Below are positions 21,584 to 54,859 of a stretch of DNA of 54,859 nt, piece by piece (within the stretch, counting starts at the first letter, position 1; each line of letters starts with the position of its first letter). Where the stretch lies: positions 85,374,001 to 85,428,859 of the forward strand of contig NC_135817.1 of the NCBI RefSeq assembly GCF_964213995.1, in the 5' to 3' direction. The notes under the pieces were generated by a model, which was given only the letters and a program-made list of their open reading frames with translations, made no database searches and was not told where the DNA came from. The position numbers and the translations under genes are program-made. The DNA is from Mustelus asterias. Its lineage: Eukaryota.

Positions 21584-21850
21584 CTCCCCTGGGTTGAGTG
21601 ATGACAGGTGAGAGAGAAGGATAGGCCACAGGGCTCTGGGTAAAGCTATTCCCCAAACTCCAAACTGGTTTCAGGAACAAAACACACTTGCACAAACAAG
21701 CCGGTATCACGGAGTGCGAGCAGAACCTCGTTTTCTCTCTCTCCCTCTCACTCTCTCAGGCAAGACCTACAGCAGTGGGTGTGAGACAAACCATCCAAAC
21801 CTCTTGCTGCCGACTTCAGACCTTGTTTTAGAGGGCGTTTCCATAGCAAC
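21584..21850 (+). promoter_or_regulatory. Unit 1 conserved promoter block with RFX X-box
   Basis: CTCCCCTGGGTTGAGTGATGACAGGTG, TATTCCCC, AGGAACAAAACAC, CAAGCCGGTATCAC; GTTTCCATAGCAAC at 21837-21850. Confidence 0.65.
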
Positions 21851-21865
21851 GTAAAACGAGGAGCC

Positions 21866-22043
21866 ATGTGGCGGTGGCGGTACAGGGAAGTATTTAACAC
21901 CTACTTCGAGGTGCAGATGTGCTGTGAAATGTTCAAGGTCGCTCCCCTGATTAAACCCGTGAATCGTCCAGTGCTAAAACTGAGAGACAGGGTGGCTGGC
22001 ACGGAACCAGCAGTCAGCACTGTGCCACCGTTCGATAACACAG
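21866..22043 (+). CDS. Variable first exon, unit 1 (type A): MWRWRYREVFNTYFEVQMCC...STVPPFDNT|G
   Basis: GGAGCCATG start, 59 codons plus 1 nt, donor CAG|GTAACT; paralogous to the other units. Confidence 0.8.
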
Positions 22044-22519
22044 GTAACTCATTGTCTCGTGCTTCTGCTGCCTTCCTGTGGTGTGTCGATAATTGCTGGT
22101 CTGCCAAAATGTCCTCTAACCCTCGCTCCTGTCTGTTCAAGTTGATGGGGAAGATTGCACAGCTAGCTAGCCAAAGGACCTGTGATACCTCGCACATGTT
22201 GGTTAATTTTAGTGCGTGAGGCAAAGTATGTGTTGACAGGCTGTTTTCCCCACAGCGAGAAGCATAGCAGAACCTGAGTATATGTCTCCATCCAGCCTCC
22301 ATACATGTGCACCATCCAGTAGAGGTCACTGGATCACAATCGGAAGTGAGATATTTAGATATTTTCCTCTAACTTTGCCAGCGCAGAAAGTTCACAACCA
22401 TTTTCACACCCCAGTTATTGCCCAGTGAACCCTCGGACCGTGCATCGATTTGTAGACCTCTAACTCATGCAGTGCCTTCCTTACGTGACCTCAGGATGTC
22501 TCAATGAGTTACTCTTGAA

Positions 22520-22702
22520 TAAAAGCAAAATACTGCGGATGCTGGAATCTGAAACAAAACCAGAAAGCGCTGGAAAATCTCAGCAGGTCTGACAGCATCT
22601 GTGGAGAGAGAACAGAGCCAATGTCCATCCTGATCGAAACATTGGCTCTATTCTCTCTCCACAGATGCTGTCAGACCTGCTGAGATTTTCCAGCATTTTC
22701 TG
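22520..22702. mobile_element. Palindromic Penelope terminal-repeat fragment (second family)
   Basis: Long inverted repeat GCTGGAAAATCTCAGCAGGTCTGACAGCATCTGTGGAGAGAGA and its reverse complement. Confidence 0.7.
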
Positions 22703-22786
22703 TACGTACTCTTGAAGTGTGGTCACTGCTGTAAGATAGCAAACATGACAGCCAATTTCTGCATAGCAAGCTCCCACAAACAGCAG

Positions 22787-23180
22787 ATAAAGAACAAAGA
22801 AAATTACAGCACAGGAACAGGCCCTTTAGCCCTCCAAGCCTGCACCGACCATGCTGCCCGACTGAACTAAAACCCCCTACCCTTCTGGGGACATTATCCC
22901 TCTATTCCCGTCCTATTCATGTATTTTTCAAGATGCCCCTTAAAAGTCACTACCGTATCCACTTCCGCTACCTCCCCCGGCAATGAGTTCCAGGCACCCA
23001 CTACTCTCTATGTAAAGAACTTGCCTCATACATCTCCTTTAAACCTTGCCCCTCGCACCTTAAACCTATGTCCCTTAGTAATTGACTCTTCCACCCTGGG
23101 AAAAAGCTTCTGACTATCCACTCTGTCCATGCCCCTGATAATCTTGTAGACTTCTATCAGGTCGCCCCTCAACCTTCGTC
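22787..23180 (-). mobile_element. CR1 3' end
   Basis: AAAGAACAAAGA tail and CR1 C-terminal coding remnants on the minus strand. Confidence 0.8.
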
Positions 23181-23409
23181 AATCAAGCTATTTTCAAGCT
23201 CAAGCTCCATTAATCAAGCTATTTTCGTAACATTGGTTGTGAAATAAGAACCACCAGAAATAACTCCTTTAATAATAAAGAAGGAAGATTGGCATTCATA
23301 CAGGGCTGTTCATGACCACTGGATTTATGAAATCCTACAGTGCAGAAGGAGGCCATTCAGCCCATCGAGTCTGCATCGACCATAATCCCATCCAGGCCCT
23401 CTCCCCATA

Positions 23410-24840
23410 TTGCTGATGTGGTTCCTATTTTCAAGAAGGGGAATAGGGATAGCCCAGGAAATTACCGACTGGTGAGTCTAACCTCAGTGGTTGGTAAGCT
23501 GATGGAGAAGATCCTGAGAGACAAGATTTATGAGCATTTAGAGAGGTTTAATATGCTCAAGGATACTCAGCATGGCTTTGTCAAAGGCAGATCATGCCTT
23601 TCGAGCCTGGAGGAGTTCTTCGAAAATGTGACTAAACACATTGACGAAGGGAAGGCGGTAGATGTGGTTTATATGGATTTTAGCAAGGCGTTCGATAAGG
23701 TCCCCCATGCAAGGCTTCTCGAAAAAGTGAGAGGGCATGGGATCCAAGGGGCTGCTGCCCTGTGGATCCAGAACTGGCTTGCCCAAAGGAGGCAGAGAGT
23801 GTGTACAGATGGGTCTTTTTCTAATTGGAGGTCGGTCACCAGTGGTGTGCCCCAGGGATCTGTTCTGGGACCCTTGCTGTTTGTCATTTTCATAAATGAC
23901 CTGGATGAGGAAGTGGAGGGATGGGTTGGTAAGTTTGCTGACGACACGAAGGTTGGTGGGGTTGTGGATAGTCTGGAGGGATGTCAGAAGTTACAGAGGG
24001 ACATAGATAGTATGCAAGACTGGGCGGAGAAGTGGCAGATGGACTTCAACCCAGATAAATGCGTAGTGGTCCATTTTGGCAGGTCGAATGGGATGAAGGA
24101 GTACAATATAAAGGGAAAGACTCTTAGTACGGTAGAGGATCAGAAGGACCTTGGGGTCCGGGTCCATAGGACTCTAAAATCGGCCCCGCAGGTGGAGGAG
24201 GTGGTTAAGAAGGCATATGGTGTGCTAGCCTTTATCAATCGAAGGATTGAGTTTAGAAGTCCGGGGATAATGATGCAGCTATATAAGACCCTCGTCAGAC
24301 CCCACTTGGAGTACTGTGCTCAGTTCTGGTCACCTCATTACAGGAAGGATGTGGAAAAGATTGAAAGGGTGCAGAGGAGATTTACAAGGATGTTGCCAGG
24401 ATTGAGTGGCATGCCTTATGAGGATAGGCTGAGGGAGCTCGGTCTTTTCTCCTTGGAGAGACGTAGGACGAGAGGAGACCTAATAGAGGTATATAAGATG
24501 TTGAGAGGCATAGATCGGGTGGACTCTCAGAGGCTTTTTCCCAGTGTGGAAATGGCTGCTACGAGAGGACACAGGTTTAAGGTGCTGGGGGGTAGGTACA
24601 GGGGAAATGTTAGGGGGAAGTTTTTCACACAGAGGGTGGTGGGCGAGTGGAATCGGCTGCCGTCAGTGGTGGTGGAGGCAAACTCAATAGGGTCTTTTAA
24701 GAGACTCCTGGATGAGTACATGGGACTTAATAGGATGGAGGGTTATAGGTAGGCCTAAAAGGTAGGGATATGTTCGGTACAACTTGTGGGGCCAAAGGGC
24801 CTGTTTTGTGCTGTAGCTTTCTATGTTTCTATGTTTCTAT
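23410..24840 (+). mobile_element. 5'-truncated CR1 LINE with open RT ORF, nested inside a V-SINE
   Basis: PIFKKG..NYRLVSLTS, DFSKAFDKVPH, GVPQGSVLGP, FADD motifs; ORF to 24752; TTCTATGT tail; SINE halves on both sides. Confidence 0.95.
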
Positions 24841-24996
24841 AATCCCTTTACCTTAGCTTGTTACCCCTGACACTAAGGGGCAACTTAGCAAGGCCAATCC
24901 ATCTAACCCGCACATCTTTGGATTGTGGGAGGAAACCGGAGCACCTGGAGGAAACCCACGCAAACACAGGGAGAATGTGCAAACTCCACACAGACA

Positions 24997-25173
24997 TGAT
25001 GTGGGGATGCCAGCGTTGGACAGGGGTGGGCACAGTAAGAAGTCTCACAACATCAGGTTAAAGTCCAACAGGTTTATTTGGTAGCACGAGCTTTTGGAGC
25101 AGCGCTCTGAAAGTTCGTGCTACCAAATAAACCTGTTGGACTTTAACCTGGTGTTGTGAGACTACTTACTGTG
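24997..25173. mobile_element. Palindromic Penelope-derived element inserted in a SINE
   Basis: Inverted repeat; 12-bp TSD TCCACACAGACA (24985-24996, 25174-25185). Confidence 0.75.
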
Positions 25174-26136
25174 TCCACACAGACAGTGACCCAAGCCGGC
25201 ATTCGAACTTGCACCCCTGGCACTGTGAGGCAGCAGTGCTAACCACTGTGTCACCATGCCGCCCCAAGCACTATTTAACAGTATTGGGCGGGAATCTCTG
25301 ATCTTGTCTGTACCGGTCCCGTTGCCAGCGAGAATTTGGCGCTCACCCAAAACTCCTTTCACTGCAGCGGGACCGAAGAATCGCAGCCACAGATGAGTGC
25401 AGAGGTTCTCTGAGATTATTTCACAGCATGCGGCCGCCACTGGCGAGGGCAGCATTTATTGCCCCTTCCTAATTGCCCTTGAGAAGCTGCTGGTGAGTCA
25501 TCTTCTTGAACAGGTGTTGTCCACATGGGTGTAGGTACGCCCACAGTGCTGTTCATTCCTTAAGCAGAGTTGGACACAACTCAGGGTCTTGCTGGGCCAT
25601 TCCAGAGAGCAGTTGAGAGCCACATTGCTGTGGGCCTGGAGTCACATGCAGGCTAGATGGGGTAAGGACGGCAGACGCAGGTGAATCAGATGGGTTTGGC
25701 CAACAATAGTTTCATGGTCACCATTACTGATGATTTTCCAGATTAATGCATGGAATTTAAACTCCCATCAGTTGCCATGTTGGGATTTGAACCCAGGGCC
25801 CTGGAGTATTAGCCTGAGGCTCTGAATTACTCATGCAGTAACATTGCCACGATACCACCGCCTCCACCTAAATTGGATTCACAGCCAAGAAAGTACTTTT
25901 GTGAAGTGTAGACTATTGTAAGGTAGGAAACATGACAACCGAGTTGCACACAGCAAGATCCCATAATCAGCAATGTAATAATGGAGAGATAGCCTGTTTA
26001 TGGTAATATTGGTTGAGGGATAAATATTGGCCAGGATGCTGAGTAGAACACCCCCGCTCTTCTTTGCAATAACAGCCTTTGATCATTTACAGCCATGTCA
26101 GAGATCGGAATGGGCCTCCGTTTACTATCTCAGTTT

Positions 26137-26470
26137 AATATATCCCCAATGGTGGGGGAGTCCAGAACCAGGGGTCACAGTCTGAGGATTCAGGGTAGAC
26201 CATTTAGGACAGAGGTGAGGAGACATTTCTTCACCCAAAGAGTGGTGAGCCTGTGGAATTCATTACCACAGGAAGTAGTTGATGCCAAAACATTGAATGT
26301 ATTCAAGAGGTGGCTGGATATAGCACTTGGGGCGAATGGGATCAAGGGTTATGGGGAGAAAGCAGGATTAGGCTATTGAGTTGGACAATCAGCCATGATG
26401 GTGATGAATGGTGGAGCAGGCTCGAAGGGCCGAATGGCCTCCTCCTGCTCCTATCTTCTATTTTCTATGA
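26137..26470 (+). mobile_element. CR1 3' end
   Basis: VGESRTRGHSLRI..FRTEVRRHFFTQRVVSLWNSLP plus tail. Confidence 0.88.
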
Positions 26471-27029
26471 CTCTCCCTGTCTGGAACACAGCATCTTTGT
26501 CAGTGCAGCCCTCAGTACCTTGGTTATTGTGTCTGAACCCTGGAGTGGGACTTGACCCTTATGACTCAGGTGTGCTTCCAACTGAGCCGCAACTGACACT
26601 CAATGTTGCAACAGGTGTTTTTATACCCAGGGTAGCCAGGGTTTAACATCCCATTGTAAAAGTGGCTGATGGCTGACAGTGCAATGAGGTGTATAAAATA
26701 ATGATAGGGAAGTCTAAAAATAGGGAAGTCTCACCAAAATTAACCTTTGTTCACTGTAGCAGGATCAGAGAATCCTGCCGGCATAAATGGCCAGAAAATT
26801 CACAAGCTTTTGAAGCCAAGTTCCAATTGTTAAACTGTGATAATGGGATTCTGATCTCATTTTCACCATAGTTTAAGTCTCTTGGTTACTTGTCCATTAA
26901 CATGATACACTACTGCACTGGGATAACTTTGTTTTGATTCATTCGTGGGACATGGGCGTTCCTGGCTGGCCAGCATTTATTGCCAATGCCTAATTGTCCT
27001 TGGAGGGCAGTTGAGAGTCAACCACATTG

Positions 27030-27347
27030 TAGAATCGTAGAATCCCTGCAGTGCAGAAGGAGGCCATTCGGCCCATCGAGTCTGCACCGACAACGATCCC
27101 ACCCAGGCCCTATTCCCATAACCCCACATATTTATCCTGCGAATCCCCTGACACTAGGGTCAATTTAGCATGGCCAATCCACCTAACCCGCACATCTTTG
27201 GACTGTGGGAGGAAACCGGAGCACCCGGAGGAAACCCACGCAGACACGGGGAGAATGTGCAAACTCCACTCAGACAGTGACCCGAGGCCGGAATTGAACC
27301 TGGGTCCCTGGCGCTGTGAGGCAGCAGTGCTAACCATTGTGCCACCC
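27030..27347 (-). mobile_element. HE1-like V-SINE nested in the second SINE family
   Basis: Full head, V-domain and tail; host SINE resumes on both sides. Confidence 0.85.
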
Positions 27348-27719
27348 CTGTGGCTCTGGCACTGGAGTCACATGTAGGCTAGGCTGGGTAAGAACGGCAG
27401 ATTTCCTTCCCTAAAGGACATTGGTGAACCGGATGGGGTTTTTCCGACAATCGACAATGGTTTCATGGCCATCAGTAGATTCTTAATTCCAGTTTTCTTT
27501 ATCGAATTCAAATACCACCACCTGCTGTGGATAGGATTCGAACCCTTGTCCCCAGAACATTAGCTGAGTTTCTGGATTAATAGTTCAGCGATAATACCAC
27601 GAGTGGTATTACTGGGGTAGAATAGATATTCCTTCTTTCATATCCTTTTAAAATCACTATTTATTTATTTATTTACACTGGTATCTTTCAAATAATTACA
27701 GCCAGGATTTTCTGATCTT

Positions 27720-28160
27720 TGGTTTGATTTATTATTGTCACATGTATTAACATACAGTGAAAAGTATTGTTCCTTGCGCGCTATACAGACAAAGCATACT
27801 GTTCATAGAGAAGGAAAGGAGAGAGTCCAGTTTGTCGTGCTACAGTTATAGCTAGGATGTAGAGAAAGATCAACTTAAGTCCATTCAAAAGTCTGATGGC
27901 AGCAGGGAAGAAGCTGTTCTTGAGTCGGTTGGTACGTGACCTCAGACTTTTGTATCTTTTTCCTGATGGAAGAAGGTGGAAGAAAGAATGTCCTTTAGGG
28001 AAGGAAATCTGCCGTTCTTACCCAGTCTAGCCTACATATGACTCCAGTGGGTGCGTGGAGTCCTTAATTATGCTGGCTGCTTTGCCGGGACAGCGGGAAG
28101 TTTAGACAGTCAATGGATGGGAGGCTGGTTTGCGTGATGGATTGGGCTACATTCACGATC
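27720..28160 (-). mobile_element. Rex/Babar-type LINE 3' fragment
   Basis: Near-identical to 33385-33985 and 39810-40245; TTTGA/ATTT tail. Confidence 0.75.
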
Positions 28161-28479
28161 TTGTTCTCCCAGACTCCGCTGCCAGCGAGAATGGAGAATT
28201 TGGCGCTCAGCCAAAACTCCCTTCACTGCAGCGGGACTGGAGAATCCCAGCCGCAGGCGAGGTCAAAGAATTCCAGCCTACATCATTCAGTTGGCGAATC
28301 TCCTCCTTTGGAGACATGCCCAAGTAGGCCATACCAGAGCCTGCCTGAGTTTAATTCATGTAGTTGAAACCAGATCTTGTTCCCGTTGCTTCTCTCCATA
28401 TTCCTCCCTGTTTTCAACCTTCATAGGTTCAAAGGTTCACAACTTCGTTGTGCAGGGAGACCTGGCCTCTGAGATGGAG

Positions 28480-28612
28480 CTCCCCTGAGTCAGTGACAGC
28501 AGGTGTTGGAATGATGGTGGAGGGTTCTGGGTACAGATATTCCCCAGTCAGCCCTGCTTTCGGTAAATAGGAACAAACCTTCTCACACACACATCAGCCA
28601 GTGTCACAGAGC
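28480..28612 (+). promoter_or_regulatory. Unit 2 conserved promoter block
   Basis: CTCCCCTGAGTCAGTGACAGCAGGTG; GATATTCCCCAGTCAG; GTAAATAGGAACAAAC; CAGCCAGTGTCACAGAG. Confidence 0.7.
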
Positions 28613-28736
28613 GAGGCAGGAACTCTCACTGAGAGAGGCAGTCAGGGTTTGCGTCAAATTGTTTGTCTGTAAATGTGAGCCAGACCCTTGTCTTGCGCTG
28701 TTGTTTGGATTCGGAGCAGGGCAAATGAGAGCAGCC

Positions 28737-28905
28737 ATGTTTATGTACACGAGTGTGTTTCGAACGATGTGGCATGTGCACCTCTGCTGTAAAGAATTCA
28801 ACGCCATTCCGATGGTTCCCAACAATCAACTTGTGGTGAAGCGTAGGGGGAAAGTGTCTAATTCTGCACCTACAGTCAGCACCGTACCTCCCTTTGACCG
28901 TGAAG
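28737..28905 (+). CDS. Variable first exon, unit 2 (type A): MFMYTSVFRTMWHVHLCC...STVPPFDRE|G
   Basis: GCAGCCATG start (in-frame upstream ATG at 28725), 56 codons plus 1 nt, donor AAG|GTAACT. Confidence 0.8.
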
Positions 28906-29126: not shown

Positions 29127-29190
29127 GTGGAGAGGTAGGTCCACAAACACGGCATATGTAGACACCGACACAATTGCAAGACCTCTCCAC

Positions 29191-32090: not shown

Positions 32091-32550
32091 CGTGCACACA
32101 CACGCACATCCAGACTCTCGTGCACACTCTCAAACACACATACACACACATACAGACTCAAACACACACTCAATCACAAGCACACTCAAATATACACTTA
32201 AAATCCCAAACAAAAAACATCGGGCAGAATTTTCCCGTCCCGTCCTCTATGGGAATCGTAGCGGACGGGACCATATAAAGGTCCATTGACCTTTCCGGTC
32301 CTGGGGCGAGCATGGCCAGAAAACCCCGCCCATACACTCAATTACACAGACACAAACACGCAGAAACATATCTGGAAGGCAAATGCATACAGAATGAAGT
32401 GTGTATACCACAGTGAAGTGCTGCTTGAGATTCTTGATAGCTTCTTTACCAAATCTTCCCACCTTTACCCAACTCTGGACCAGTGTCCCCCTCCTGCCAG
32501 GTACAGGTATTATTCATCCAGGTATTATAAAGGGACAGCTGCTGTGGTTG

Positions 32551-32672
32551 CTCCCCTGGGTCAGTGATGATAGGTTGCAGAAGGTTGTGGGTAATGATAT
32601 TCCCTCGTCAGTCTTGGTAAATAGGAACAAACACTCGCACACGCACACACACACAAGCCAGTGTCACAGAGC
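32551..32672 (+). promoter_or_regulatory. Unit 3 conserved promoter block
   Basis: CTCCCCTGGGTCAGTGATGATAGGT; GATATTCCCTCGTCAG; GTAAATAGGAACAAACAC; CAAGCCAGTGTCACAGAG. Confidence 0.7.
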
Positions 32673-32760
32673 AGCAGGAATCTCATTGCGAGAGGTTGTA
32701 AGTGAGAGCGATCCTTACAAACTCTCACTCTTGGCTGGAAGGATTATTGGGAGAGATTCC

Positions 32761-32941
32761 ATGGCGGGCTGGATGATAGGACCCCTGGTTTACGAGGAAT
32801 TATTAAAAGTCATTTGGCAGGTTAATTTCTGCTGCAAAGCATTTGATGCCTCGCCACTGAATCCCAAGGGGAGGATTGCGCTAAAGCTCAGAGCGACAGC
32901 ATCTAACACTGGACCCACTGTGCCTCCCTTTGACAATGAAG
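32761..32941 (+). CDS. Variable first exon, unit 3 (type A): MAGWMIGPLVYEELLKVIWQVNFCC...PTVPPFDNE|G
   Basis: CCATGG start, 60 codons plus 1 nt, donor AAG|GTAACT. Confidence 0.8.
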
Positions 32942-33985: not shown

Positions 33986-34413
33986 GGCGTACTACCTGAA
34001 TACAAGTTGTTGATTGAATATATCAGTTTTTCCAACATAACCCAACCAAATTACACATTTACCACCGGAAGTTTTGGGGAAGGTTTCCTGTGCTGGTAAT
34101 TTTTAAGAAAAATAAGCCGTGTGATTGACTGGAAGGAATGAGTGTGGCTCACAGTGAAGTTACAAAATTCTCAGCGAAGATTCGGTTCAATACAGAGCCC
34201 CAAAATGACACTTTTAAAACATGATTGCAGGGGTAGGGGGAAGAGGTAGGGAAGTGGGATGAATTGGATAGCTGCGATGCAACGCGTTGTGTTATTTCAC
34301 TGGACTAAAGGTGCTACATAAATGCAGGTTGTTCTTGTACAGATCTACATTGCTTTTGCAAACACCACAATTGGCAATCAAGCGGTTAAAGTTTACTGAT
34401 TTGTGTACCGGGT

Positions 34414-34560
34414 CTCCCCTGGGTCAGTGACAACAGGTAAAATAAAGTAACAACTGGACTTGGTGTGGACCTATTATTTCCCAGTCTATCATCTCAGTCC
34501 TGTATTGAGCAAATAGGAGCAAACACTCTCACACTGACACCCAGGTAGTTCAGCCAGCGT
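34414..34560 (+). promoter_or_regulatory. Unit 4 conserved promoter block
   Basis: CTCCCCTGGGTCAGTGACAACAGGT; GCAAATAGGAGCAAACAC. Confidence 0.65.
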
Positions 34561-34673
34561 GAGAGAGAGGCAACAGGCCTGTCTGTCTGTGAGATGGAAA
34601 CCTCCAGGAGCAGCCCACTGTTGGCTGAAGGACTATTTGGAAAGATCCCCCTGCACTGTGGAAAAGGGGAGCC

Positions 34674-35190
34674 ATGTCTATGTACGGGGCCTTTATGGAG
34701 ATCTACTGGCAGATGCAGGTGTGCTGTGACCTGTTCAGTGATAGTCCCGTTGACTCCAAGGTGGGTCCCACACCGAGACTGAGAGACTAAAGGTCTGCTT
34801 CTGAAACTGCAGTTACCAAGGTGCCTTCCGCCTTGGGGGGGTACGGTGGCACAGTGGTTAGCATTACTGCCTAACAGCGCCAGGGACCCGGGTTCAATTC
34901 CCGGCTTGGGGGTGACTGTCTGTGTGGAGTTTGCACTTTCTCCCCGTGTCTGTGTGGGTTTCCTCCGGGTGCTCCGGTTTCACACAGTCCAAAGATGTGC
35001 GGGTTAGGTGCATTGGCCATGCTAAATTGCACCTTCGTGTCCCAGGATGCGTAGGTTAGCAGGATTAGCGGGGTAAATATGTGCGGTTAAGGGGATAGGG
35101 CCTGGATGGGATTGTGGTCGGTGCAGACTTGATGGGCCAAATGGCCTCCTTCTGCACTGTAGGGATTCTATGATTCTTTTGATCAAGCAG
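34674..35190 (+). pseudogene. Unit 4 pseudo-exon: MSMYGAFMEIYWQMQVCC...LRD*...TKVPS[SINE]FDQA|G
   Basis: In-frame TAA at 34788-34790; V-SINE (about 34835-35176) inserted inside the PPFD motif; donor CAG|GTAATG retained at 35190. Confidence 0.82.
34835..35176 (+). mobile_element. HE1-like V-SINE inserted in the unit 4 exon
   Basis: Full-length head, V-domain and GATTCTATGATTCT tail. Confidence 0.9.
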
Positions 35191-36477: not shown

Positions 36478-36547
36478 CTTATCCAGAGACCCACTGTGTA
36501 ATCTCTCATTTTTCCATTGTACGGAGGTGCCATTCTGTGACGTGGAC

Positions 36548-36708
36548 CTCCCCTGGATCAGTGTTGGCAGGTGAGGGAAGGTTAGTGAGTGGCAGGAGGG
36601 CTCTGAGTACATATTCCCCAGCCAGTTCCAGCCTCAGTAAATAGGAACAAACTCTCTCTCTCTCAGACACACATGCACACAAACGCGCACCAGCCAGCAT
36701 CACAGACA
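36548..36708 (+). promoter_or_regulatory. Unit 5 conserved promoter block
   Basis: CTCCCCTGGATCAGTGTTGGCAGGTG; ATATTCCCCAGCCAG; GTAAATAGGAACAAAC; CAGCCAGCATCACAGA. Confidence 0.7.
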
Positions 36709-36845
36709 ACAGCAGAAACGCTCGCCGTGAGCGACAGTCAGGGTTGGCACCTGGCAGTTTTGCCATGTCAGTGAGACAGACCTTTGGATATCTCCGGCTA
36801 CTGGTCGGAAGGGCTTAGCCTGGCATGAACATAGTGAGAACAGCC

Positions 36846-37017
36846 ATGATGTTCATGTTCAGAGATGTATTTATTGCACTTTACGAGGTGCACCAGTGTT
36901 GTCAGCTCTTTAATGCCGTGCCCATCATTCCGGATAAACAGCTTGTGGTGAAACTCAAAGACAGAGTGTCTAATTCCGTGCCCACAGCCAGCACCGTGCC
37001 TCCCTTTGATGTGTCAG
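36846..37017 (+). CDS. Variable first exon, unit 5 (type A): MMFMFRDVFIALYEVHQCC...STVPPFDVS|G
   Basis: CAGCCATG start (in-frame upstream ATG at 36825), 57 codons plus 1 nt, donor CAG|GTAACT. Confidence 0.8.
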
Positions 37018-41703: not shown

Positions 41704-41764
41704 AACACAGCAATTAGCAATTAAAGATTTACTATGCAAAGGCACCTGGTCTCTGAGCTGAATA

Positions 41765-41920
41765 TCCCCTGGGTCAGTGACGAGAGGTGGCATCGGGGTA
41801 GGGAGCACTGGGAGGAATCTGCTTGATGCTATTCCTGATCCGACTTGGAGGCAGATGCAGTAAACAGGAACAAATTCACTCTCTCTCACACACAAGCGAG
41901 CACCACGAGAATTAGCCAGG
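41765..41920 (+). promoter_or_regulatory. Unit 6 conserved promoter block (type B)
   Basis: TCCCCTGGGTCAGTGACGAGAGGTG; GTAAACAGGAACAAA; CAAGCGAGCACCACGAGAATTAGC. Confidence 0.7.
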
Positions 41921-42043
41921 ACATCCGGACAGATCCAAGAGACTCGTTTTGCTGCCTCTGCTTTGAAAGGTTTCAGAGAAGTTGTGCCCATTAATTGGGA
42001 AGATCGTTCAAAGATTGCCACGTCAGTGTGAATCAGAGGAGCG

Positions 42044-42203
42044 ATGAGGCTTCTGGACCTGAAGCTGCTTTACATGTTCCCTCAACTACAGTTCTGCTGT
42101 CACCTTTTTAACTCTGGTCCGATCGTTTCCAAAGACCAACTTTACCAAATTATCAGAAGTGTGGTGCCTAAAACAACAGTCGAGCCTCCTTACGACCAGA
42201 CAG
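42044..42203 (+). CDS. Variable first exon, unit 6 (type B): MRLLDLKLLYMFPQLQFCC...VEPPYDQT|G
   Basis: GGAGCGATG start, 53 codons plus 1 nt, donor CAG|GTAACT. Confidence 0.8.
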
Positions 42204-44013: not shown

Positions 44014-44471
44014 AAATGTTATAGAAAGGAGTCAAAGGGTTAATGGTCAGCATGTAGATTTACCCTTTAGCTTCCTCATTGAACAGGCAGCTGAGGCGGG
44101 ATCAGGATATTGAATTTGATGATCGGCCGTGATCAAAATGAATGGCGGAGCAGGCTCGAAAGGCCTAATGGCCTACTCCTGCTTCTAGTTTCTATGTTTC
44201 TACGAGTTTAATGATGGAAATCTTACTCCCTTCCCCATTTTCCAACACAGACCAGGCAGCAAACCTCTGTCTTGCTGCCTTGGTGCAGTGTCACAGGGAG
44301 CAGGGCACCCACACACTGGGGGGAACCCCAGTTGATGAGGTTGGTGAAGTTTATAATGAAGTATTTGGGTGTTTGTTTCAGGTTGGTAATCAATCCCCAG
44401 CAAAATGCTGGTGGTGTCAACCTGATAGTGAAAGATTTACCGAACGGGGTCACCTGGTCTGTGAGCATGGA

Positions 44472-44565
44472 CTCCCCTGGGTCAGTGTCGACAGGTGAGA
44501 GAAGGGTGGGGAGTGTCGAGGGACTCTGGGCCAAGATGGTCCCCAGTCAGTCCTGGTCCCAGTGA
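44472..44565 (+). promoter_or_regulatory. Unit 7 conserved promoter block (runs into an N gap)
   Basis: CTCCCCTGGGTCAGTGTCGACAGGTG; TCCCCAGTCAG. Confidence 0.65.
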
Positions 44566-45379
44566 NNNNNNNNNNNNNNNNNNNNNNNNNNNNNNNNNNN
44601 NNNNNNNNNNNNNNNNNNNNNNNNNNNNNNNNNNNNNNNNNNNNNNNNNNNNNNNNNNNNNNNNNNNNNNNNNNNNNNNNNNNNNNNNNNNNNNNNNNNN
44701 NNNNNNNNNNNNNNNNNNNNNNNNNNNNNNNNNNNNNNNNNNNNNNNNNNNNNNNNNNTCTGAAAGTCCCTCTGAGGGAGATGGGCAGTGTTCGATTCCC
44801 TGTGTCTGTGACAGAAACTACAGAAACCGCTCACTGCTGTTTTTTTTTCATTCATTCATGGGACATGGGCATCGCTGGCTGGCCAGCATTTGTTCAGTAA
44901 GAGTTTTAACAACACCAGGTTAAAGTCCAACAAGTTTATTTGGTAGCAAATGCCATTAGCTTTCGAAGCAGTGCATACCCCAGTTTACCCCAGTCCAACG
45001 CCGGCATCTCCACATCAGCATTTGTTGCCCATCCTTCATTGTCCTTGGAGGGCAGTTGAGAGTCAACCACATTGCTGTGGCTCTGGAGTCACGTGTAGAC
45101 CAGACCAGGTAAGGATGGTAGATTTCCTTCCCTAAAGGACATTAGTGAACCAGATGGGTTTTCCAACAATCAACAATGGTTTCATGGTCATCAGTAGATT
45201 CTTAATTCCAGATATTTTTTATTGAATTCAAATTCCACCAGCTGCCATGGTGGGATTTGAACCAGGGTCCCCAGAACATCAGCTGAGTTTCTGGATTAAA
45301 GTCTAGCATAATATCACGAGGCCATGGCCTCCTTGAAGTAGATTTGGGAGAGTTTCTATCACTGGGTGAATCATGAACC

Positions 45380-45560
45380 ATGTTTTTGTTTGAAGCAATG
45401 ATTCACACTTTGCATGAAGTGCGTATGTGTTCAATGTCTCATCTTTGTTTTCCTATGACCATCTTGTGGTGAGGGGCAATGAGAGGGAGACAGAGAGACA
45501 GAAAGAGTGAGTCTGATATCAGACCCACATGTAGCATCCTGCCGTCCTTTAACCCAACAG
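45380..45560 (+). pseudogene. Unit 7 pseudo-exon (type A): MFLFEAMIHTLHEVRMC / FNVSSLFSYDHLVVR / SDIRPTCSILPSFNPT|G
   Basis: Homology across frameshifts; deletion at the CC motif; TGA at 45470 in the ATG frame; donor CAG|GTAACT retained; SINE between promoter and exon. Confidence 0.72.
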
Positions 45561-47395: not shown

Positions 47396-47695
47396 GGCAG
47401 CACGGTGGCACAATGGTTAGCACTGCTGCCTCACAGCGCCAGCGACCCGGGTTCGATTCCCAGCTTGGGTGACTGTCTGTGTGGAGTTTGCATGTTCTCC
47501 CCGTGTCTGCGTGGGTTTCCTCCGGGTGCTCCGGTTTCCTCCCACAGTCTGAAAGACGTGCTGGTTAGGTGCATTGGCCGTGCTAAATTCTCCCTCAGTG
47601 TACCCGAACAGGCACCGGAGTGTGGATTTTCACAGTAACTTTATTGCAGTGTTAACGTGACACTAATAAATAAACTTTACACTTTAACTTTAAAT
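47396..47695 (+). mobile_element. V-SINE (alternative tail)
   Basis: Head, V-domain, tail. Confidence 0.87.
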
Positions 47696-47993
47696 CAAGC
47701 TCTTACAAAGAGCAGTGTGGGAAATAAGCAGATAGTCTTCATTGGGGCTATTACATGTAGGATAAGTATTTGCTCAGTCAGAAAGAGAAGTCTCTTCTTT
47801 GGATTTTTGCCTTGGGAGTTTTCACATCTTTCTCAGAGGGCAGACAGGCCTGCGGTTTAGCGTCACATCTGAACGAGCCCACATCCACGCACATGGGAGA
47901 CCCTGACTCGAGCTGTAACTCTGTGGCTGGCCGACATGTTGAATGTAGCAGGCAATGTTTATTCTACAGAGGCAGCTGCTGTGAGAGGTGAAC

Positions 47994-48150
47994 CTCCCCC
48001 GGGTCGGTGACGACAGGTGTGAGAAAGGACAGGTAGGAGGGATCTGGGAGCTGCAGCTCCCTGATCGACAGACTCTGAGGTGGTTGCAGGAAAGAGGAAC
48101 AAGCTCACCCTTTCTCTCAGACAAGTGAGTGTCACAGGAATTAGCTGATA
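47994..48150 (+). promoter_or_regulatory. Unit 8 conserved promoter block (type B)
   Basis: CTCCCCCGGGTCGGTGACGACAGGTG; AGGAACAAG; CAAGTGAGTGTCACAGGAATTAGC. Confidence 0.7.
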
Positions 48151-48273
48151 CATCCGGGCATTTCAGTGCGTCAAGGTCCCGCACCAAGAAGCTCGCTTGC
48201 GTATTGAGACGTTGCACATTTGTTTGGGAGGACTTTATTTTGGAAGGTTCCCACGGCAGCAGGAAGGAGAGGG

Positions 48274-48448
48274 ATGATGATGCTTCTATACCTTGAGCTG
48301 AACCACTTGTTTGTCGAGCTGCAGATGTGCTGCCAGATGTTTGGTTCCTATCCGCTCCTTTCCAATGACCAACTTAGGGACAGTATCAGAAGCACTGTGC
48401 CTAAACCAGGTACCAAGCTCGCTGCAGAGCCTCCTTACGACCATAAAG
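48274..48448 (+). CDS. Variable first exon, unit 8 (type B): MMMLLYLELNHLFVELQMCC...AAEPPYDHK|G
   Basis: 58 codons plus 1 nt, donor AAG|GTAACT. Confidence 0.8.
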
Positions 48449-49010
48449 GTAACTGCTGTATCCTCTTGTGCTCACTGTAATGTCGGGTTCAATCCCCGCC
48501 CCCTGTCCTGTCTTCCTGTTGAAGCCACTGACTGACCGGAGAGGGTTCCACAGGTGCAAGCAACCCTCTGTGATTCGCAACCCCAGTTTCCATTTGTGCG
48601 CTTGGATTGTTCGCCAGCTCTGCGACTGCAGGAAGCATCGTAGCTGAGCAGAATGCTGTCTTTGTCCAATGTCTCTCACTCTCTGGCAGTGGTTAAAGGG
48701 TTAATGTTCAGGTGCCAGCAGGAAGCAGAGGGAAGTTTTCAGTGGCTGGGCCAATGGGGAATCTGGTTAGCGATGGCGACCCCAGCTCCCTTCTCCCCTC
48801 ATCAGCACTGACAAGGGAGCAAATCTGTCTTGCTTGTGTTGTACAGATGAGTGTCACAGGGAGCAGGGCACACTGGGGAAATAAAGGTTGGTGACATTGA
48901 AGATTGAACGAATTGTGTGTTTGGTTCAGCTCTGAAATCTGGTCCTTTCAAATGCCAGTGATATGAATGGAATAGTGAAAGGTTTAATATACAGGGCCTA
49001 TGAAGTGAAT

Positions 49011-49245
49011 CTCCCCTGGGTGAGTGTTGCCAGATTGAGAAGCAGGAGTCAGGAGAGATTGTGAGCAAAGATATTCCCTAGCCAGTCCTGGTTTTAAGTA
49101 AATAGGAACAAACTCTCTCACAGACGCACAACGCCAGTGTCACAGAGAGTGGCAGAAACTCTCACTGGGAGAGAGAGAGAGAGTGTCAGTAACAGGCAGT
49201 GTGCTGCTGCCTGTGCAGAGAGAGACTGTCTCAATCTGCACCACA
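49011..49245 (+). promoter_or_regulatory. Unit 9 orphan promoter block (type A); no exon found downstream
   Basis: CTCCCCTGGGTGAGTG; GATATTCCCTAGCCAG; GTAAATAGGAACAAAC; GCCAGTGTCACAGAG; followed directly by SINE and Penelope fragments. Confidence 0.65.
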
Positions 49246-49502
49246 AGGGCTGGCACAATGGTTAGCACTACTGCCTCTCAGCACCAGAGACCCTGGTTCG
49301 ATTCTGGTCTGTGTGGAGTTTGCACATTCTCCCCATGTCTGAATGGGTTTTCTCTCCGGGTGTTCTGGTTTCCTCCCGTTTCGAGTCCAGATGACCCTCT
49401 GTCAAAGCTTTGACAAAGGATCATCTGGACTCGAAGCATCAGCTCTTTTCTCTCCTTACAGATGCTGCCAGACCTGTTGAGATTTTCCAGCATTTTCTCT
49501 CT

Positions 49503-49533
<31 letters not shown>

Positions 49534-49688
49534 CCTTCCTATTTTTCACTCTTTAAGATGTTATGTAAAATCTGACTGAGGTCTTTGGCTGCCTGTCCAC
49601 ATTTCTGGGTCTCAGGTGTTAGTTTGATTCAGTCTCCTGTGAAGCACCCTGGGAGGGTGTTTGGCTCTGACAAAGGTGCTATATAAAT

Positions 49689-50006
49689 GCAGCACAGTGG
49701 CACAGTGGCCAACACTGCTGCCTCAGCGCCAGGGTTCAATTCCCGGCTTGGGTCACTGTCTGTGTGGAGTCTGCACGTTCTCCCCATGTCTGCGTGGGTT
49801 CCCTCCGGGTGCTCCGGTTTCCTCCCACAGTCTGAAAGATGTGCAGGTTAGGTAGTTTGGCCATGTTAAATTGCCCCTTTGTGTCAGGGGGATTAGCAGG
49901 GTAAATACGTGGGGTTATGGGGATAGGGTCTGGGGGGGGGATTATTGTCGGTGCAGACTTAACGGGCTGAATGGCCTCCTTCTGCACTGTAGGATTCTCT
50001 GATTCT
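49689..50006 (+). mobile_element. HE1-like V-SINE
   Basis: Head, V-domain, tail. Confidence 0.85.
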
Positions 50007-50597
50007 GTAATGCAACTTATTGTTGCTGCTGCTGAGTTTATTACAAATCCACACACTGTGCCCCAAGCTAAGAGCTGGGTGGGTGGGTGGGGAATGGGGG
50101 GTGGGGGGAGGGGGGTGCGGAGGGTGGAGGAGGGGAGGAGGAAGGTGGGGGGAGGAGGGTGGGGAGGGTTGGGGGGGCGGTGACAGGCCACACAGGAGCC
50201 ATGACTCTGGCCCTCTCTGCCTGTGTGCCAGCTGTGTGGCTTTGTGGGTAGTGCTCTGGGTACTTGTGTCGGCAAGTTGAGGGTTCAAGTCCCACCCACG
50301 TTTCCAGTGAATCGAAAATACTGAGGCTGACGCTCGCAGCAAAATCGCTTTCCATTGGTGGCGAAGCACTTTGGAACATCCTGAGGTCGGGGAGTTGGGT
50401 TGTAAATAGAAGCGGGTTCATCCTGAATGGTGGTGAATCGGCGAGTGAGCCGGAGGGAGCCCCAGTGAGGGGCCGCACCAGCTGCTTTGTCGAACACGAC
50501 GCTCATTTAAACCCCTGGCAGTTATCTTTAATCAAGCCCAGTATCTGGTAATTAAGAGTTTACTGTCTGCAGCCACCTGGTGTGCCGCAGACTCCCC

Positions 50598-50725
50598 TCT
50601 CCCGGGACAGTGGGCACAGGTGAGAGAAGGTTAGGTCGAGCCAGGAGAGTTTGTGGGAAAACAGTTCCCAGCCCCGTGCGCCCGCTTTCTGTAAACACGC
50701 TGATTGGCAGCACAAAGCGAGAATC
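50598..50725 (+). promoter_or_regulatory. Unit 10 divergent promoter block
   Basis: CTCCCGGGACAGTGGGCACAGGTGAGAGAAGG; GTAAACAC; CTGATTGG (reverse CCAAT); CAAAGCGAGAATC. Confidence 0.55.
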
Positions 50726-50867
50726 GCAGGCGGCGGCAGGAACCCTCGCTGAGGCAGCAAGGCTGCTGCCTTGCAAAGGTGGCAGTCAATTCACAAAGAA
50801 TGCCAGTGTTGTTCCTGAGCGCTTCTGGGGATAGTCCTAAAAGACGGTGCGGCCTCTGGGAGCAACA

Positions 50868-51033
50868 ATGATGTACATGCAGCTTATTGAAATATTTATG
50901 GAGGTGCAGATGTGCTGTGTGCTTTTCAACAGCTTCCCACTCCTTTCTGACAAGCAACTGGTGCAGAGGCTGCGAGAGAAAGCAGCTATTGCTAAAACAC
51001 GTTTCAGCTCTGAGACCCGTTACGATGATACAG
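50868..51033 (+). CDS. Variable first exon, unit 10 (type B-like): MMYMQLIEIFMEVQMCC...SETRYDDT|G
   Basis: 55 codons plus 1 nt, donor CAG|GTAACT. Confidence 0.8.
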
Positions 51034-51355
51034 GTAACTATTGTGTCCTCGTGCGCTCTAGCTCATCAGTTCTTCTGCTGAAGGACGGTGACTGATGGGG
51101 ACAACTTCCATAGATACCAGCTCTCCCTCTGTCTCTCCCTCTCCACAAGCTCCACAGTGAACTGGCTATTGAACCAAGGTAAGCAGCACAGCTGAGCTTG
51201 ACGCTGTCTCTGTCCAAACTCTTGCACTTTCCAACAGGTATTGAATAATTAATTATCAGGAGCCAGAGCGATAGAAGCTTTTAAAAATGTTTTTGTGTTT
51301 GTGGAGAACTGATTTTAGTGGCGGCAATTCTGCTTCCCCTCTCATGTGGAGTGAC

Positions 51356-51391
51356 TCACCTGATGAAGGGGCAGCGCTCCGAAAGCCCGTG
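51356..51391 (+). ncRNA. Minimal hammerhead motif in a Penelope fragment; cleavage-site U mutated
   Basis: CAC-CTGATGA-A-GGGGC-AGC-GCTCC-GAAA-GC-CC-GTG. Confidence 0.6.
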
Positions 51392-51675
51392 CTACCAAAT
51401 AAACCTGTTGGACTTTAACCTGATGGTGTGAGACTACTTACTGTCCTCTCTCATCAGCAGAGGTCAGGAAACAAGCCTCAGTCTTGCTGGCATTATACAA
51501 TTGAGTTTCACAGGGGCGCAGAGCATCTGCACAATGGGAGAGTCTGCGTTGGTGAAATTTAGAATTTAATTAGTTGGATGTTAGTTTCAGGTCTGTTTTT
51601 CCATCAAATGCCAGTGGTATGAATTGAATAATTAAAGGTTTACTGTGTGGGGGATGCGTAGTCTGCACGCTGAAA

Positions 51676-51800
51676 CTCCCCAGGATCAGTATTGACAGAT
51701 TGACAGGAGAGCTTCTGAACAAAGATATTAATTCCCCAGTCAGCCCCCGGTTCAGTAAATGGAAACAAACCCACTCACACACAAGCCGGTATGACAGAAA
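51676..51800 (+). promoter_or_regulatory. Unit 11 conserved promoter block (type A)
   Basis: CTCCCCAGGATCAGT; ATTCCCCAGTCAG; GTAAATGGAAACAAAC; CAAGCCGGTATGACAG. Confidence 0.65.
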
Positions 51801-51949
51801 GTAGTAGAAACTCTCACTTAGGGAGGCAGGCAGTGTCAGCAATGGGCAGCGTGCTGCCGTCTGTGTGACAGACAGACAGTGGAAATCTCCCGCTGTTGTA
51901 TGGAAGGATGTTTGGGAGGATTTCCACCGCTGGATGAATGAGTTGAACC

Positions 51950-52449
51950 TTGCTTCTGTTTGAAGCGGTGATCCACACATTGTATGAAGCGCATGTTTAC
52001 TTTATTGGTGTCACAAGTAGGCTCACATTAACACTGCAATGAAGTTACTGTGAAAATCTCCTTGTCGCCACACTCTGTTCCTGTTCCATCTCTGTTGCTC
52101 CCAACGCCTGTTCGGGTACACTGAGGAAGAATTTAGCATGGCCAATGCATCTAACCTGCACGTTTTTCGGACTGTGGGAGGAAACTGGAGCACCCGGAAG
52201 AAACCTACGCAGACACGGGGAGAAAGTGCAAACTCCACACAGACAGTGACGCAAGCCAAGAATCAAACCTGGGTCTCTGGCACTGTGAGGCAGCAGTGCT
52301 AACCACTGTGCCATCGTGCTGCCCCATCTGTGTTGTAAACTGTAAACTGTGCCTTCATCGATTCCTGATGCCCAACTCGTGTTGAACCAATGAAAGAGAG
52401 TCTGATTCTGCACCTGCCATTAGCATTGTGTCACCCTTTAAACCAATAG
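51950..52449 (+). pseudogene. Unit 11 pseudo-exon: (L)LLFEAVIHTLYEAH[SINE]LCCKL*TVPSSIPDAQLVLNQ*KRV/SDSAPAISIVSPFK
   Basis: Start mutated (AACCTTG versus AACCATG in unit 7), SINE insertion about 51995-52324, two stops, frameshift, donor lost. Confidence 0.75.
51995..52324 (-). mobile_element. V-SINE (alternative tail) inserted in the unit 11 exon
   Basis: Full head, V-domain and tail on the minus strand. Confidence 0.87.
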
Positions 52450-53758
52450 AATTGTGCTTTGCTCTTGTGTTGCTCTATTGTAGCTGAGACTGTGTGGGTG
52501 ATTCCATGTCCCTCAGAATCTCTTGCCTTTGTGACTGAAGCCATTGCCCATAACCTCCTCTAGCCTCATAACTCTCCCAAATCCTGGTAATGCCTCCACT
52601 CCAGCCTCGTTTGCAATATTGCTCCAGAATTGGGCTCAGTTGCCTGGGCCCTAAGCGCCGAACCCCTTCCCTAAAACTCTCCGCCACTCTCTCTTTCTTG
52701 CCTCCTTTAAGATGCCCCTTCAAATGATCTTGTGTTTTTGCCACCTCTCCTCCTATCTCCTGGGTTCGTGTCACATTTTGTTTGCTGACCTCTCCCTGTG
52801 AAGTGCTTTATGGCAGTAAAGTACATCAAAGGCGCCATTTGAATTAAGTTGTTGTTGCTGCTGAATGTAGTTGAATTCATAGACTAAGTTTGTATGGCAC
52901 TATCTGGGGTTATGGGGGATGGGTGGGATTGTTGTCAGTACAGGCTTGATGGGCCGAATGGCCTCTTTCTGCACTGTAGGGATTCCATTCTATCTGCACC
53001 AGTGGCATTTATTTGAACAGAAAAGATCCTGGAAGTGTGAAAAAATACTGGCGCAATTAGTGATGGAAGCAGTGGCAACATATCGGAAGATGTTAGAGAG
53101 GAGTGTAATGTGAAGGAAAGGGGAATATCGGGATTAGGGATCAGGGTGGGAATGTGGGATAAGGAAAACTGCTGCTGTGGAGGGTAAACACCAACAGGGA
53201 CTGGTTGGGCCAAATGGCCTTCTTCAGTGTTATAAATTCTGTGTGATTCTTCCAGTGGGAAACTTGTGTTTGTGAGTTTTACCCTTTGTTTGCAATGAGC
53301 AAAAACATTTGTGCGATTTACAACAGGAAAATTCATTCATTAAACAAGTCAGAGAAATAAACTGAATTTGCCTAGCGCCAGTCACAACCTCAGGACAGCC
53401 CAAAGCCAATCAAATGCATTTGAAGTTTGGATACTGTTGGAATGTAGGAAGATGTGGCACCCAATGTGAACACAATAAGGTCCCACACACAGATAATCGG
53501 TTTCAGTGAGGGATAGACATTGAACAGAACATGCGGCAACCTCTCGAACCCTTCAATGCTGGCTACCTGGAGGACTGAAGGAGCTTCAGTTTAACCGCTC
53601 GTCAGAACTCACCCACTGTTTTGCATGGGATCGGGAGTGTTGCAGGTGGGTTGGGGGTCTTTCTAGATCAGTAACTAATTCCTAAAGAATGCCAGCATAT
53701 TTATTCCAGCAATTAAATGTTTGCTGCAAAAAAGGCACCTGATCTCTGCGCTCCATTT

Positions 53759-53905
53759 CTCCTGGGTCGGTGACGACAGGTGTGAGAAGGAGAGGCAACC
53801 GTCGAAGGGATCGAGCTGATGCTGTTCACTGATCTACAGACCCAGTAAACAGGGACAAACTGGCTCTCTCTCACACACAAGCGAGCATCACCAGGATTAG
53901 CTGAG
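53759..53905 (+). promoter_or_regulatory. Unit 12 conserved promoter block (type B)
   Basis: CTCCTGGGTCGGTGACGACAGGTG; GTAAACAGGGACAAAC; CAAGCGAGCATCACCAGGATTAGC. Confidence 0.7.
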
Positions 53906-54036
53906 ACCTCCGGGCAGGTTCCTGCGTCAAGAAACTCGCTACTCGCCCCTGTTTTTGAAACATTTCAGAGAAGTTGTGCCATTAATCGGGAAGGTATTGT
54001 CAGAAGGTTTCCACATTAGTGTGAAGGAGAGGAGCG

Positions 54037-54202
54037 ATGAGGCTTCTGGATATGATACTTGGTTCCTTGTTCTCCAAGCTGCAGATGTGCTGTTATTTAT
54101 TCAACTCGTGGCCGATCCTTTCAAATGATCAGCTTAGACAAATTATCAAAAGCACCGTCCGTAAAACGACGACCGGTACAGAGCCTCCCTACGACAAGAC
54201 AG
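54037..54202 (+). CDS. Variable first exon, unit 12 (type B): MRLLDMILGSLFSKLQMCC...TEPPYDKT|G
   Basis: GGAGCGATG start, 55 codons plus 1 nt, donor CAG|GTAACT; closest to unit 6. Confidence 0.8.
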
Positions 54203-54770
54203 GTAACTGCGGTATTCCTGTGTGCTCATTGTAATGTTGAGATTCTGTTCCGCACATGCCTTGTCCTGCTGTTGAAGGCAGTGAGTGATGGACACAGTGT
54301 TCCACAGATTCTCACTGCATTATGTTAACCTCAAAACAAATTCCCATCTCTTCATAGCTTTAACAGTTAACTGGCTATTGAACCAAGGAGTGCATCGTAA
54401 CTAAGCTCAATACTGTCTTCACCCGATGTCCAAGCTTTTGCACTTTCTAGCAGGTACCGAAGGGTTAAGGATCAGGAGAAAGAACCAGAGATTTTCTTAC
54501 CCCTTTCAGTTGTTGGGGAAACTGAGGCTAATGAGAGAGACACTGCCCTCTTCCTCCTGTCATCAACACAGATCATAGAACAAACCTCAGTCTTGCTTGT
54601 ATTGTGCAGTTGAGTGGCAAGGAGCAACGTGTCCACACACTGGGCACGACTTGTGTTAGTGAAGTTTAGGGTTAAATTCCTGACGCATTTGTTGCAACTA
54701 GTTTCCATCAAATGCTAGTGGTCTTAACATAAGAGTTGAAGATTTAAATGGGCTGGTCTCTGAGGAGAAG

Positions 54771-54859
54771 CTCCCCTGGGTCAATGCCAGCAAAGTGAAA
54801 GAACCTCAGCGAGTATCAGGATATTCTCCAGTCAGTCTCAGATACAGTGAATCGGGACA
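54771..54859 (+). promoter_or_regulatory. Unit 13 promoter block (type A), truncated by the window edge
   Basis: CTCCCCTGGGTCAATG; GATATTCTCCAGTCAG; upstream spacer homologous to those before units 7, 9 and 11. Confidence 0.6.

Follow-up and report, generated by a model that had tools for sequence, protein, structure and literature searches.

A probable two-tier array of variable N-terminal exons in the ROBO2 gene of the shark Mustelus asterias

Short paralogous exon units are repeated in tandem on the forward strand of Mustelus asterias contig NC_135817.1. The window analysed here is a stretch of 54,859 nucleotides (contig positions 85,374,001 to 85,428,859), and positions without the label "contig" are counted from its first letter. 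From 21564 rightwards to the end of the window, a DNA profile of the element upstream of the exons detects 13 copies and no more, with E-values of 5e-19 to 5e-35 that are circular, because the profile was made from these same 13 copies. The count agrees with the 13 units of a first-pass annotation. Of the matches to this profile in 655 kb of sequence, only 2 weak ones (E 0.28 and 0.77) lie outside the array.

Eight units consist of an element and an intact exon: unit 1 (21564-22043; exon 21866-22043, 59 aa), unit 2 (28423-28905; exon 28737-28905, 56 aa), unit 3 (32503-32941; exon 32761-32941, 60 aa), unit 5 (36506-37017; exon 36846-37017, 57 aa), unit 6 (41714-42203; exon 42044-42203, 53 aa), unit 8 (47931-48448; exon 48274-48448, 58 aa), unit 10 (50543-51033; exon 50868-51033, 55 aa), and unit 12 (53690-54202; exon 54037-54202, 55 aa). 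As first described, these exons open with ATG, encode 53 to 60 residues with a CC-xx-F-xxx-P motif, and end in a PP(F/Y)D-like motif (TRYD in the exon at 50868); the identical phase-1 donor AG/GTAAC is present in 8/8. Three units had been called decayed, and all three are: unit 4 (34352-35190) has an in-frame stop at codon 40 of the exon from 34674, a SINE insertion, and a residual donor near 35190; unit 7 (44406-45560) has insertions between element and exon (45380-45560) and an in-frame stop; and in unit 11 (51609-52000), TTG replaces ATG at 51950 and a SINE follows. Unit 9 (48953-49240) is the orphan element noted earlier at 49011, followed by a SINE and lacking an exon. Unit 13 (54713-54859), the cut-off unit noted at 54771, has its element truncated by the window end; further right, a CA-rich tract of 1.1 kb is present, as is a decayed exon. 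In addition, a divergent 14th unit that the earlier reading did not include lies upstream of the 13 on the same strand (11819-12283), with an element at 11819 (E 5e-5) and an open ATG exon at 12118-12283 with a phase-1 donor. This exon lacks the CC motif, and its middle part appears frame-shifted relative to the family. Two peptide queries against the whole 3.68-Gb genome gave matches below E 0.8 only in this stretch of the contig.

Annotation of the sequence to the right, as the first-pass annotation had suggested, extends the array and reveals a second one. The stretch at contig 85432125-85510318 (+) contains five divergent ATG exons and another 11 exons of the CC type that are intact, which brings the CC-type first exons to 19 intact members, all phase 1 and without a conserved upstream acceptor. 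The divergent ATG exons at 125-133 kb bear the Cys pair typical of the second array, and two of them sit behind a weak copy of the upstream element. The second array (contig 85514306-85630591, +) holds 22 intact cassettes and one decayed exon; the cassettes are phase 1-1 internal exons with conserved acceptor and donor sites, and their lengths are divisible by 3 in 22/22. A profile comparison of CC exons with cassettes was weak (probability 40%, E 3e-4; another 4%), and we do not claim a common origin.

Both arrays lie between two leader exons of ROBO2, the gene of a nerve-guidance receptor, on the same strand: the distal leader at contig 85138213 (+, 91% match) and a ROBO2b-type leader at contig 85796200-85796257 (+). 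Constant ROBO2 exons follow downstream, namely the Ig1 exon at contig 85857338-85857661 (+, 98% match, phase-1 acceptor), 428 kb right of the window, and a cytoplasmic exon at contig 86286771 (+, 97% match). The constant exons had been placed to the right of the window, and this is where they are found. The two-tier system covers 245 kb and precedes the part of this core wiring receptor that binds the ligand. Matches to the cassette profile are RefSeq ROBO2 isoforms, and the best PDB match of a cassette-bearing isoform is ROBO2 (6iaa). The units of the first array are tandem paralogues, each an exon with an ATG start, and they lie inside the ROBO2 gene.

How the exons are joined is indicated by gene models of other elasmobranchs, all of them predicted RefSeq XP models whose full-length linkage may itself be inferred. 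Seven ROBO2 models of the zebra shark, Stegostoma tigrinum, open with seven different CC-type exons, in line with the earlier proposal that the units serve as alternative coding starts for a single gene further downstream. Five of these seven starts match exons in the window at 67-75% identity; the best-matching pairs are XP_048396414.1 with unit 1 (74%), XP_048396393.1 with unit 5 (67%), XP_059506100.1 with unit 8 (74%), XP_048396418.1 with unit 10 (71%), and XP_048396422.1 with unit 12 (75%). All 11/11 Stegostoma models among the 15 listed members of a 65-member cluster start in an array exon (7 CC-type, 4 divergent-type) and carry at least one cassette. The donors had been expected to join one common constant acceptor; instead, 7/7 CC-starting models enter 1-2 of the paralogous cassettes and only then Ig1. 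Segments follow genomic order, pairings are mixed, and one cassette is used behind two different first exons. Cassette-bearing ROBO2 models carry 1 to 6 cassettes, and five species (Stegostoma, Narcine, Mobula, Scyliorhinus torazame, and Hemiscyllium) have models in which the Ig1 exon directly follows one of several different cassettes. The cassettes occur in models of sharks and rays, and ray cassettes match specific cassettes in order. Among the models listed, CC-type starts are seen only in Stegostoma, and many shark models listed have only conventional leaders (Carcharodon, Heterodontus, Scyliorhinus canicula, Pristiophorus). Neither module occurs in the N-termini of 168 non-elasmobranch ROBO2 proteins (0/168).

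We propose, with a probability of about 0.8, that the tandem ATG exons of ROBO2, each likely transcribed from the conserved element that precedes it, are spliced to at least one of the 22 cassettes and then to Ig1, as in the Stegostoma models. Each first exon would be transcribed from its own element, its donor would join one or more of the frame-preserving cassettes, and these would join the constant Ig1 exon through matching phase-1 splice sites. Promoter choice multiplied by cassette choice would allow 19 x 22 = 418 one-cassette combinations for the CC type only, and a second cassette would raise the number into the thousands.

In this scheme, the upstream elements are putative promoters, one per first exon. 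A coding micro-exon was considered for the element and ruled out, since its acceptor is not conserved and it carries indels; the CC exons were likewise ruled out as internal cassettes, having no conserved acceptor and, in most cases, in-frame stops within 150 bp upstream. Sites that we take to be E-box and forkhead-like motifs lie upstream of 19/19 and 18/19 intact CC exons, respectively, versus 37% and 29% of background windows, the exon copies being related to one another. Guesses at a tissue were set aside as too weak, both from an olfactory/B-cell EBF-like site (10/19, strict form 0/19) and from an X-box (1/19). Three read runs over unit 12 cover exon and intron alike and have no splice joints, so these runs are uninformative on expression.

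Pfam gave nothing above its cut-off for the 8 first exons, and for the 22 cassettes only scattered weak matches of single members. A profile search beyond the genome, also suggested earlier, brought one real relative: among 1.84 billion representatives, the first-exon profile matched 3 proteins, of which only Chiloscyllium GCC34960.1 (best match unit 10, 62% identity) is related, the other two being chance, repeat-driven matches. The same profile had no match among 7989 longer candidates. For one cassette, the ESM Atlas offered only sub-0.9 ENTH/VHS leads, and Foldseek found 0 matches to a cassette model in the PDB. The resemblance of the first exons to CC chemokines does not amount to identity, as the third and fourth Cys are absent. 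We found no description of the two modules or of the ROBO2 arrays in the literature.

Ig1 is the Slit-binding domain (PMC10084454). For the modules in front of it we make a functional proposal, which we hold tentatively and at somewhat less than even odds. ROBO2 isoforms would have a Thr-rich stalk directly before Ig1, topped by a helical cap that contains Cys and differs between isoforms; cells would thereby gain distinguishable receptor versions, which might tune Slit binding or ROBO-ROBO contact.

The properties of the first exon leave room for a different outcome. AlphaFold predicts a single helix (residues 3-21) that ends at the invariant CC. The best 10-residue hydropathy of CC exons is 0.56-2.13 versus 1.89-3.12 for nine conventional leaders, mostly lower but in overlapping ranges; their hydrophobic stretches are often interrupted by charged residues, and their hydrophobic moment is higher (1.25-2.09 versus 1.05-1.62). 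The CC exons thus appear unlike signal peptides of the classical kind. Palmitoylation commonly occurs at adjacent cysteines near an N-terminal helix, a setting that the CC exons fit. Splicing could proceed as proposed without yielding receptors at the cell surface: the CC exon would be an amphipathic helix held cytosolically by palmitoylated cysteines, and the isoforms would stay inside the cell, take the wrong orientation or be degraded, perhaps in a single tissue, for example the gonad or a ciliated epithelium. We regard this as a real, if minority, possibility. Against it, two Mobula models place cassettes behind a conventional signal-peptide leader, where they would be extracellular, and a Thr/Ser-rich tail and an invariant Cys pair suit an extracellular module.

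Splicing into ROBO2 may itself be doubted. First exons and cassettes could belong to another gene, one for a small protein, that is nested in a ROBO2 intron and has a 3' end of its own, the RefSeq joins being minor read-through splicing. Short reads can be chained into full-length gene models, and ray and catshark models begin at internal methionines and look 5'-incomplete. Nonetheless, the direct joining of different cassettes to Ig1 in models of five species, together with a splice-site heuristic by which no repeated terminal exon stood out past the last cassette, makes this reading improbable.

Pairwise comparison gives a median dN/dS of 0.50 among first exons (159/171 pairs usable) and 0.61 among cassettes (230/231), the pairs not being independent, and values of 0.5-0.7 mean that constraint is weak. 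That the arrays are selectively neutral debris of tandem duplication with leaky transcription is very improbable: 15/39 elements lack an intact exon and dN/dS approaches 1 in some close pairs, but it is below 1 in 96% (first exons) and 94% (cassettes) of usable pairs, specific members are kept across species (the tree has two first-exon pairs with Stegostoma that are starred, and ray cassettes match in order), the positions of Cys do not vary, and 22/22 cassettes stay in frame despite length changes.

Taken furthest, ROBO2 splicing from variable first exons through cassettes would make the receptor a combinatorial cell-identity code in sharks and rays, with about 24 first exons and 22 non-Ig cassettes placing thousands of caps before the Slit-binding domain; we consider this extension rather unlikely. 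If true, it would be a third route to the barcoding of neurons or sensory cells beside clustered protocadherins and Dscam, via an undescribed small helical domain. One receptor would gain hundreds of alternative putative front ends. The arrays form an apparent lineage-wide diversity system in which both peptide modules are unnamed and the cassettes are kept in sharks and rays, and they let the origin of such receptor systems be tested directly.

One close precedent is ROBO2 itself, which in vertebrates is known to have a couple of leaders with little effect on the mature receptor. In human and mouse, as described in PMC7010700, alternative promoters give the leaders ROBO2a and ROBO2b, which join the same Ig1 exon; they are two unrelated signal peptides, and the mature proteins differ by four residues. 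The shark arrays use the same gene and the same junction of alternative first exons with Ig1, within the long stretch from the distal to the ROBO2b-type leader; in the shark, however, the first exons number about 24 and the cassettes 22, each set paralogous, and together they add 120-390 residues in the models listed.

The likeness to protocadherins and UGT1A drawn earlier holds for the tandem paralogous first exons and their common donor phase, and fails at the second tier, the cassettes that precede the constant exon in the models. Protocadherin alpha/gamma, UGT1A, and GCNT2 (PMC1885805) share with the shark array tandem paralogous first exons, relics, birth-and-death turnover, and common constant exons; unlike theirs, the shark first exon has 53-60 aa, lacks a clear signal peptide, and in the models is followed by another variable tier. 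The common CTCF-like site of clustered protocadherins was found near only 3/19 shark exons in a crude test (consensus with at most 2 mismatches, 97 matches in 455 kb). In Drosophila Dscam1, exons lie in tandem clusters and are mutually exclusive, unlike the 1 to 6 cassettes of shark and ray models, whose modules lack a Pfam or PDB match. Chelicerate sDscam, the shortened Dscam with alternative promoters (PMC9258826), is likewise an Ig/FN3 neural receptor, and tandem cassettes combined with the choice of promoter and with splicing vary its N-terminus. The variable parts of sDscam and Dscam1 are Ig domains with demonstrated homophilic specificity, whereas the shark modules are small, helical, and non-Ig, with a putative binding role. 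Variable first exons that feed a second array, one of variable cassettes, are a design unlike protocadherin, UGT1A, and Dscam1.

The array of alternative first exons proposed by the first-pass annotation is a real feature of this locus. The eight intact exons it had listed are correctly placed; each starts at an ATG, encodes 53-60 aa, and ends at a phase-1 AG/GTAAC donor, and C18, C19, and P26 are invariant in an alignment of 15 members. A DNA profile of the conserved upstream element recovers the 13 claimed units as 13 copies between 21564 and the window end, including decayed, orphan, and cut-off units as described, and adds a divergent 14th copy at 11819. Across the whole genome, matches to two first-exon peptide queries (E < 0.8) are confined to this part of contig NC_135817.1 (C17); thus, the exons form one local array, and a dispersed repeat is ruled out.

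The window covers C17:85374001-85428859; we extended the search on its left by 200 kb and on its right by 400 kb, continuing its numbering (adding 85,374,000 gives C17 positions). The element set comprises 39 of 43 profile matches, with two weak outliers and two fragments excluded. Behind 24 of these elements lies an open exon running from an ATG to a phase-1 donor: 19 are CC-type (21866-91063, + strand) and 5 are divergent (12118, 109347, 118326, 127446, and 133159); the other 15 have no open exon. An additional divergent exon lies near 125417. The upstream elements of the 19 CC-type exons all contain an E-box, and 18 of the 19 a forkhead-like site; none has a TATA box, and no CTCF-like site is common to them. 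A perfect X-box-like palindrome sits immediately 5' of the ATG at 21866 (window ~21836-21850), in 1 of the 19 intact units.

The array carries marks of its history. The divergent unit at 11819-12283 lacks the CC motif and is open from ATG to phase-1 donor; the family-like residues of its middle part sit in a different frame, as if two compensating frameshifts had happened. Eight decayed exons (45380, 51950, near 56130, 61063, 62970, 64717, 77646, and 83955) form a subfamily that kept the upstream element and mostly lacks an in-frame ATG; these were apparently copied together with intact neighbors. At 66117-71147 (stretch L002), a ~4.5 kb insertion with direct terminal repeats, resembling an LTR element, splits one unit directly behind its ATG. 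A damaged intronless frame on the minus strand (17028-17405), resembling ribosomal protein L39, is probably a processed pseudogene.

Annotation of the neighboring DNA, which the first-pass annotation had called for, reveals a second array downstream: 22 intact internal cassettes (140306-256591) and 1 decayed copy (223665). The intact cassettes measure 189-234 nt, all divisible by 3, with a common YAG/G acceptor and AG/GTAA donor; each product is ~70 aa, with two invariant cysteines and a Thr/Ser-rich tail. No cassette was found elsewhere in the genome below E 0.7. Three divergent ATG exons at 125417-133345 (stretch L008) carry the cassette-type cysteine pair behind a weak or undetected element, and are possible intermediates between the arrays; 2 of them serve as starts in Stegostoma models.

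Both arrays point to ROBO2. Among 8000 candidates scored, the cassette profile matched 4 proteins, all RefSeq ROBO2 isoforms (Narcine, Stegostoma, and Mobula), and the nearest solved structure to a full isoform is ROBO2. The gene's Ig1 exon (C17:85857338, +, phase-1 acceptor) and cytoplasmic exon (C17:86286771, +) lie downstream, with a ROBO2b-type leader near C17:85796200 (+) and a conventional distal leader at C17:85138213 (+). A second Robo, taken as ROBO1, occupies the opposite strand in a convergent layout (cytoplasmic exon 64%). The Ig1 exons of the two genes (L061:1463-1832 for ROBO2; L062:1493-1864 for the facing copy at C17:86719866, -) are 98.9% identical over 372 bp of DNA, including ~40 bp of intron; their flanks have only repeats in common and the cytoplasmic exons differ strongly, a pattern suggestive of gene conversion between the two genes at this Slit-binding exon. 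The distal leader matches a third leader type of mammal and teleost models, and is unlike the 36-residue ROBO2a type (PMC7010700).

Predicted RefSeq models connect the segments. The ROBO2 protein cluster has 65 members, 15 of them listed, including 11 from Stegostoma tigrinum. Seven of the 11 start with seven different CC-type exons, as expected for alternative first exons of one downstream gene; the closest Mustelus exons are 21866 (74%), 36846 (67%), 48274 (74%), 50868 (71%), 54037 (75%), 87401 (60%), and 90907 (83%), and 2 of the 7 pairs are starred in the tree. The remaining 4 start with relatives of 127446 and 133159. One to four cassettes precede Ig1 in all 11, segments occur in genomic order, and one cassette is used behind two first exons. 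The proposal that all donors join one common constant acceptor does not hold: all seven CC-starting models enter cassettes before Ig1. We favor, at a probability of roughly 0.8, an architecture of first exon, cassette(s), and ROBO2 Ig1. A single element would fire and start the transcript at its own first exon, which would splice to one cassette, at times more, and then to Ig1, in phase 1 throughout. By arithmetic only, CC-type exons allow 418 one-cassette forms, 528 with divergent exons, and ~6000 with one or two cassettes.

Median pairwise dN/dS among paralogues is 0.50 for the 19 first exons and 0.61 for the 22 cassettes, with 96% and 94% of the usable pairs, respectively, falling under 1; these values are read with the caveat that pairs are non-independent and intact copies were selected for open frames. 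AlphaFold predicts two main helices (12-28 and 36-48) and a disordered tail for the cassette (pLDDT 67, pTM 0.42) and a single helix (3-21) for the first exon (pLDDT 60). Pfam names no family for either, and Foldseek of the cassette model against PDB gave 0 matches. Since the variable cap directly precedes Ig1, the Slit-binding domain (PMC10084454), it could, tentatively, tune ligand or receptor contacts and mark cells. The main objection is that CC-type exons appear amphipathic rather than hydrophobic and bear little resemblance to classical signal peptides, their hydropathy lying mostly under that of conventional leaders with overlapping ranges, so that these isoforms may be intracellular; however, in predicted Mobula models cassettes follow a conventional leader.

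Of 244 ROBO2 records retrieved (the best 120 of 3330 matches plus listed cluster members), 236 include sequence N-terminal to Ig1. In this set, the first-exon profile matches 7 of 68 elasmobranch records and the cassette profile 34 of 68, and neither matches any of 168 non-elasmobranch N-termini. Because of how this sample is composed, it suggests but does not prove that bony vertebrates lack the modules. The isoforms are present in RefSeq, unremarked; a full-text literature search, with subscription journals and supplements outside its scope, retrieved no paper describing the shark arrays.

In comparison with known systems, the first tier works like the clustered protocadherins and UGT1A (PMC1885805), but the direct splice to a constant exon in that design is replaced here by entry into cassettes. 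There is a likeness in spirit to sDscam (PMC9258826), but the shark cassettes encode no Ig domains and are not used in a mutually exclusive way.
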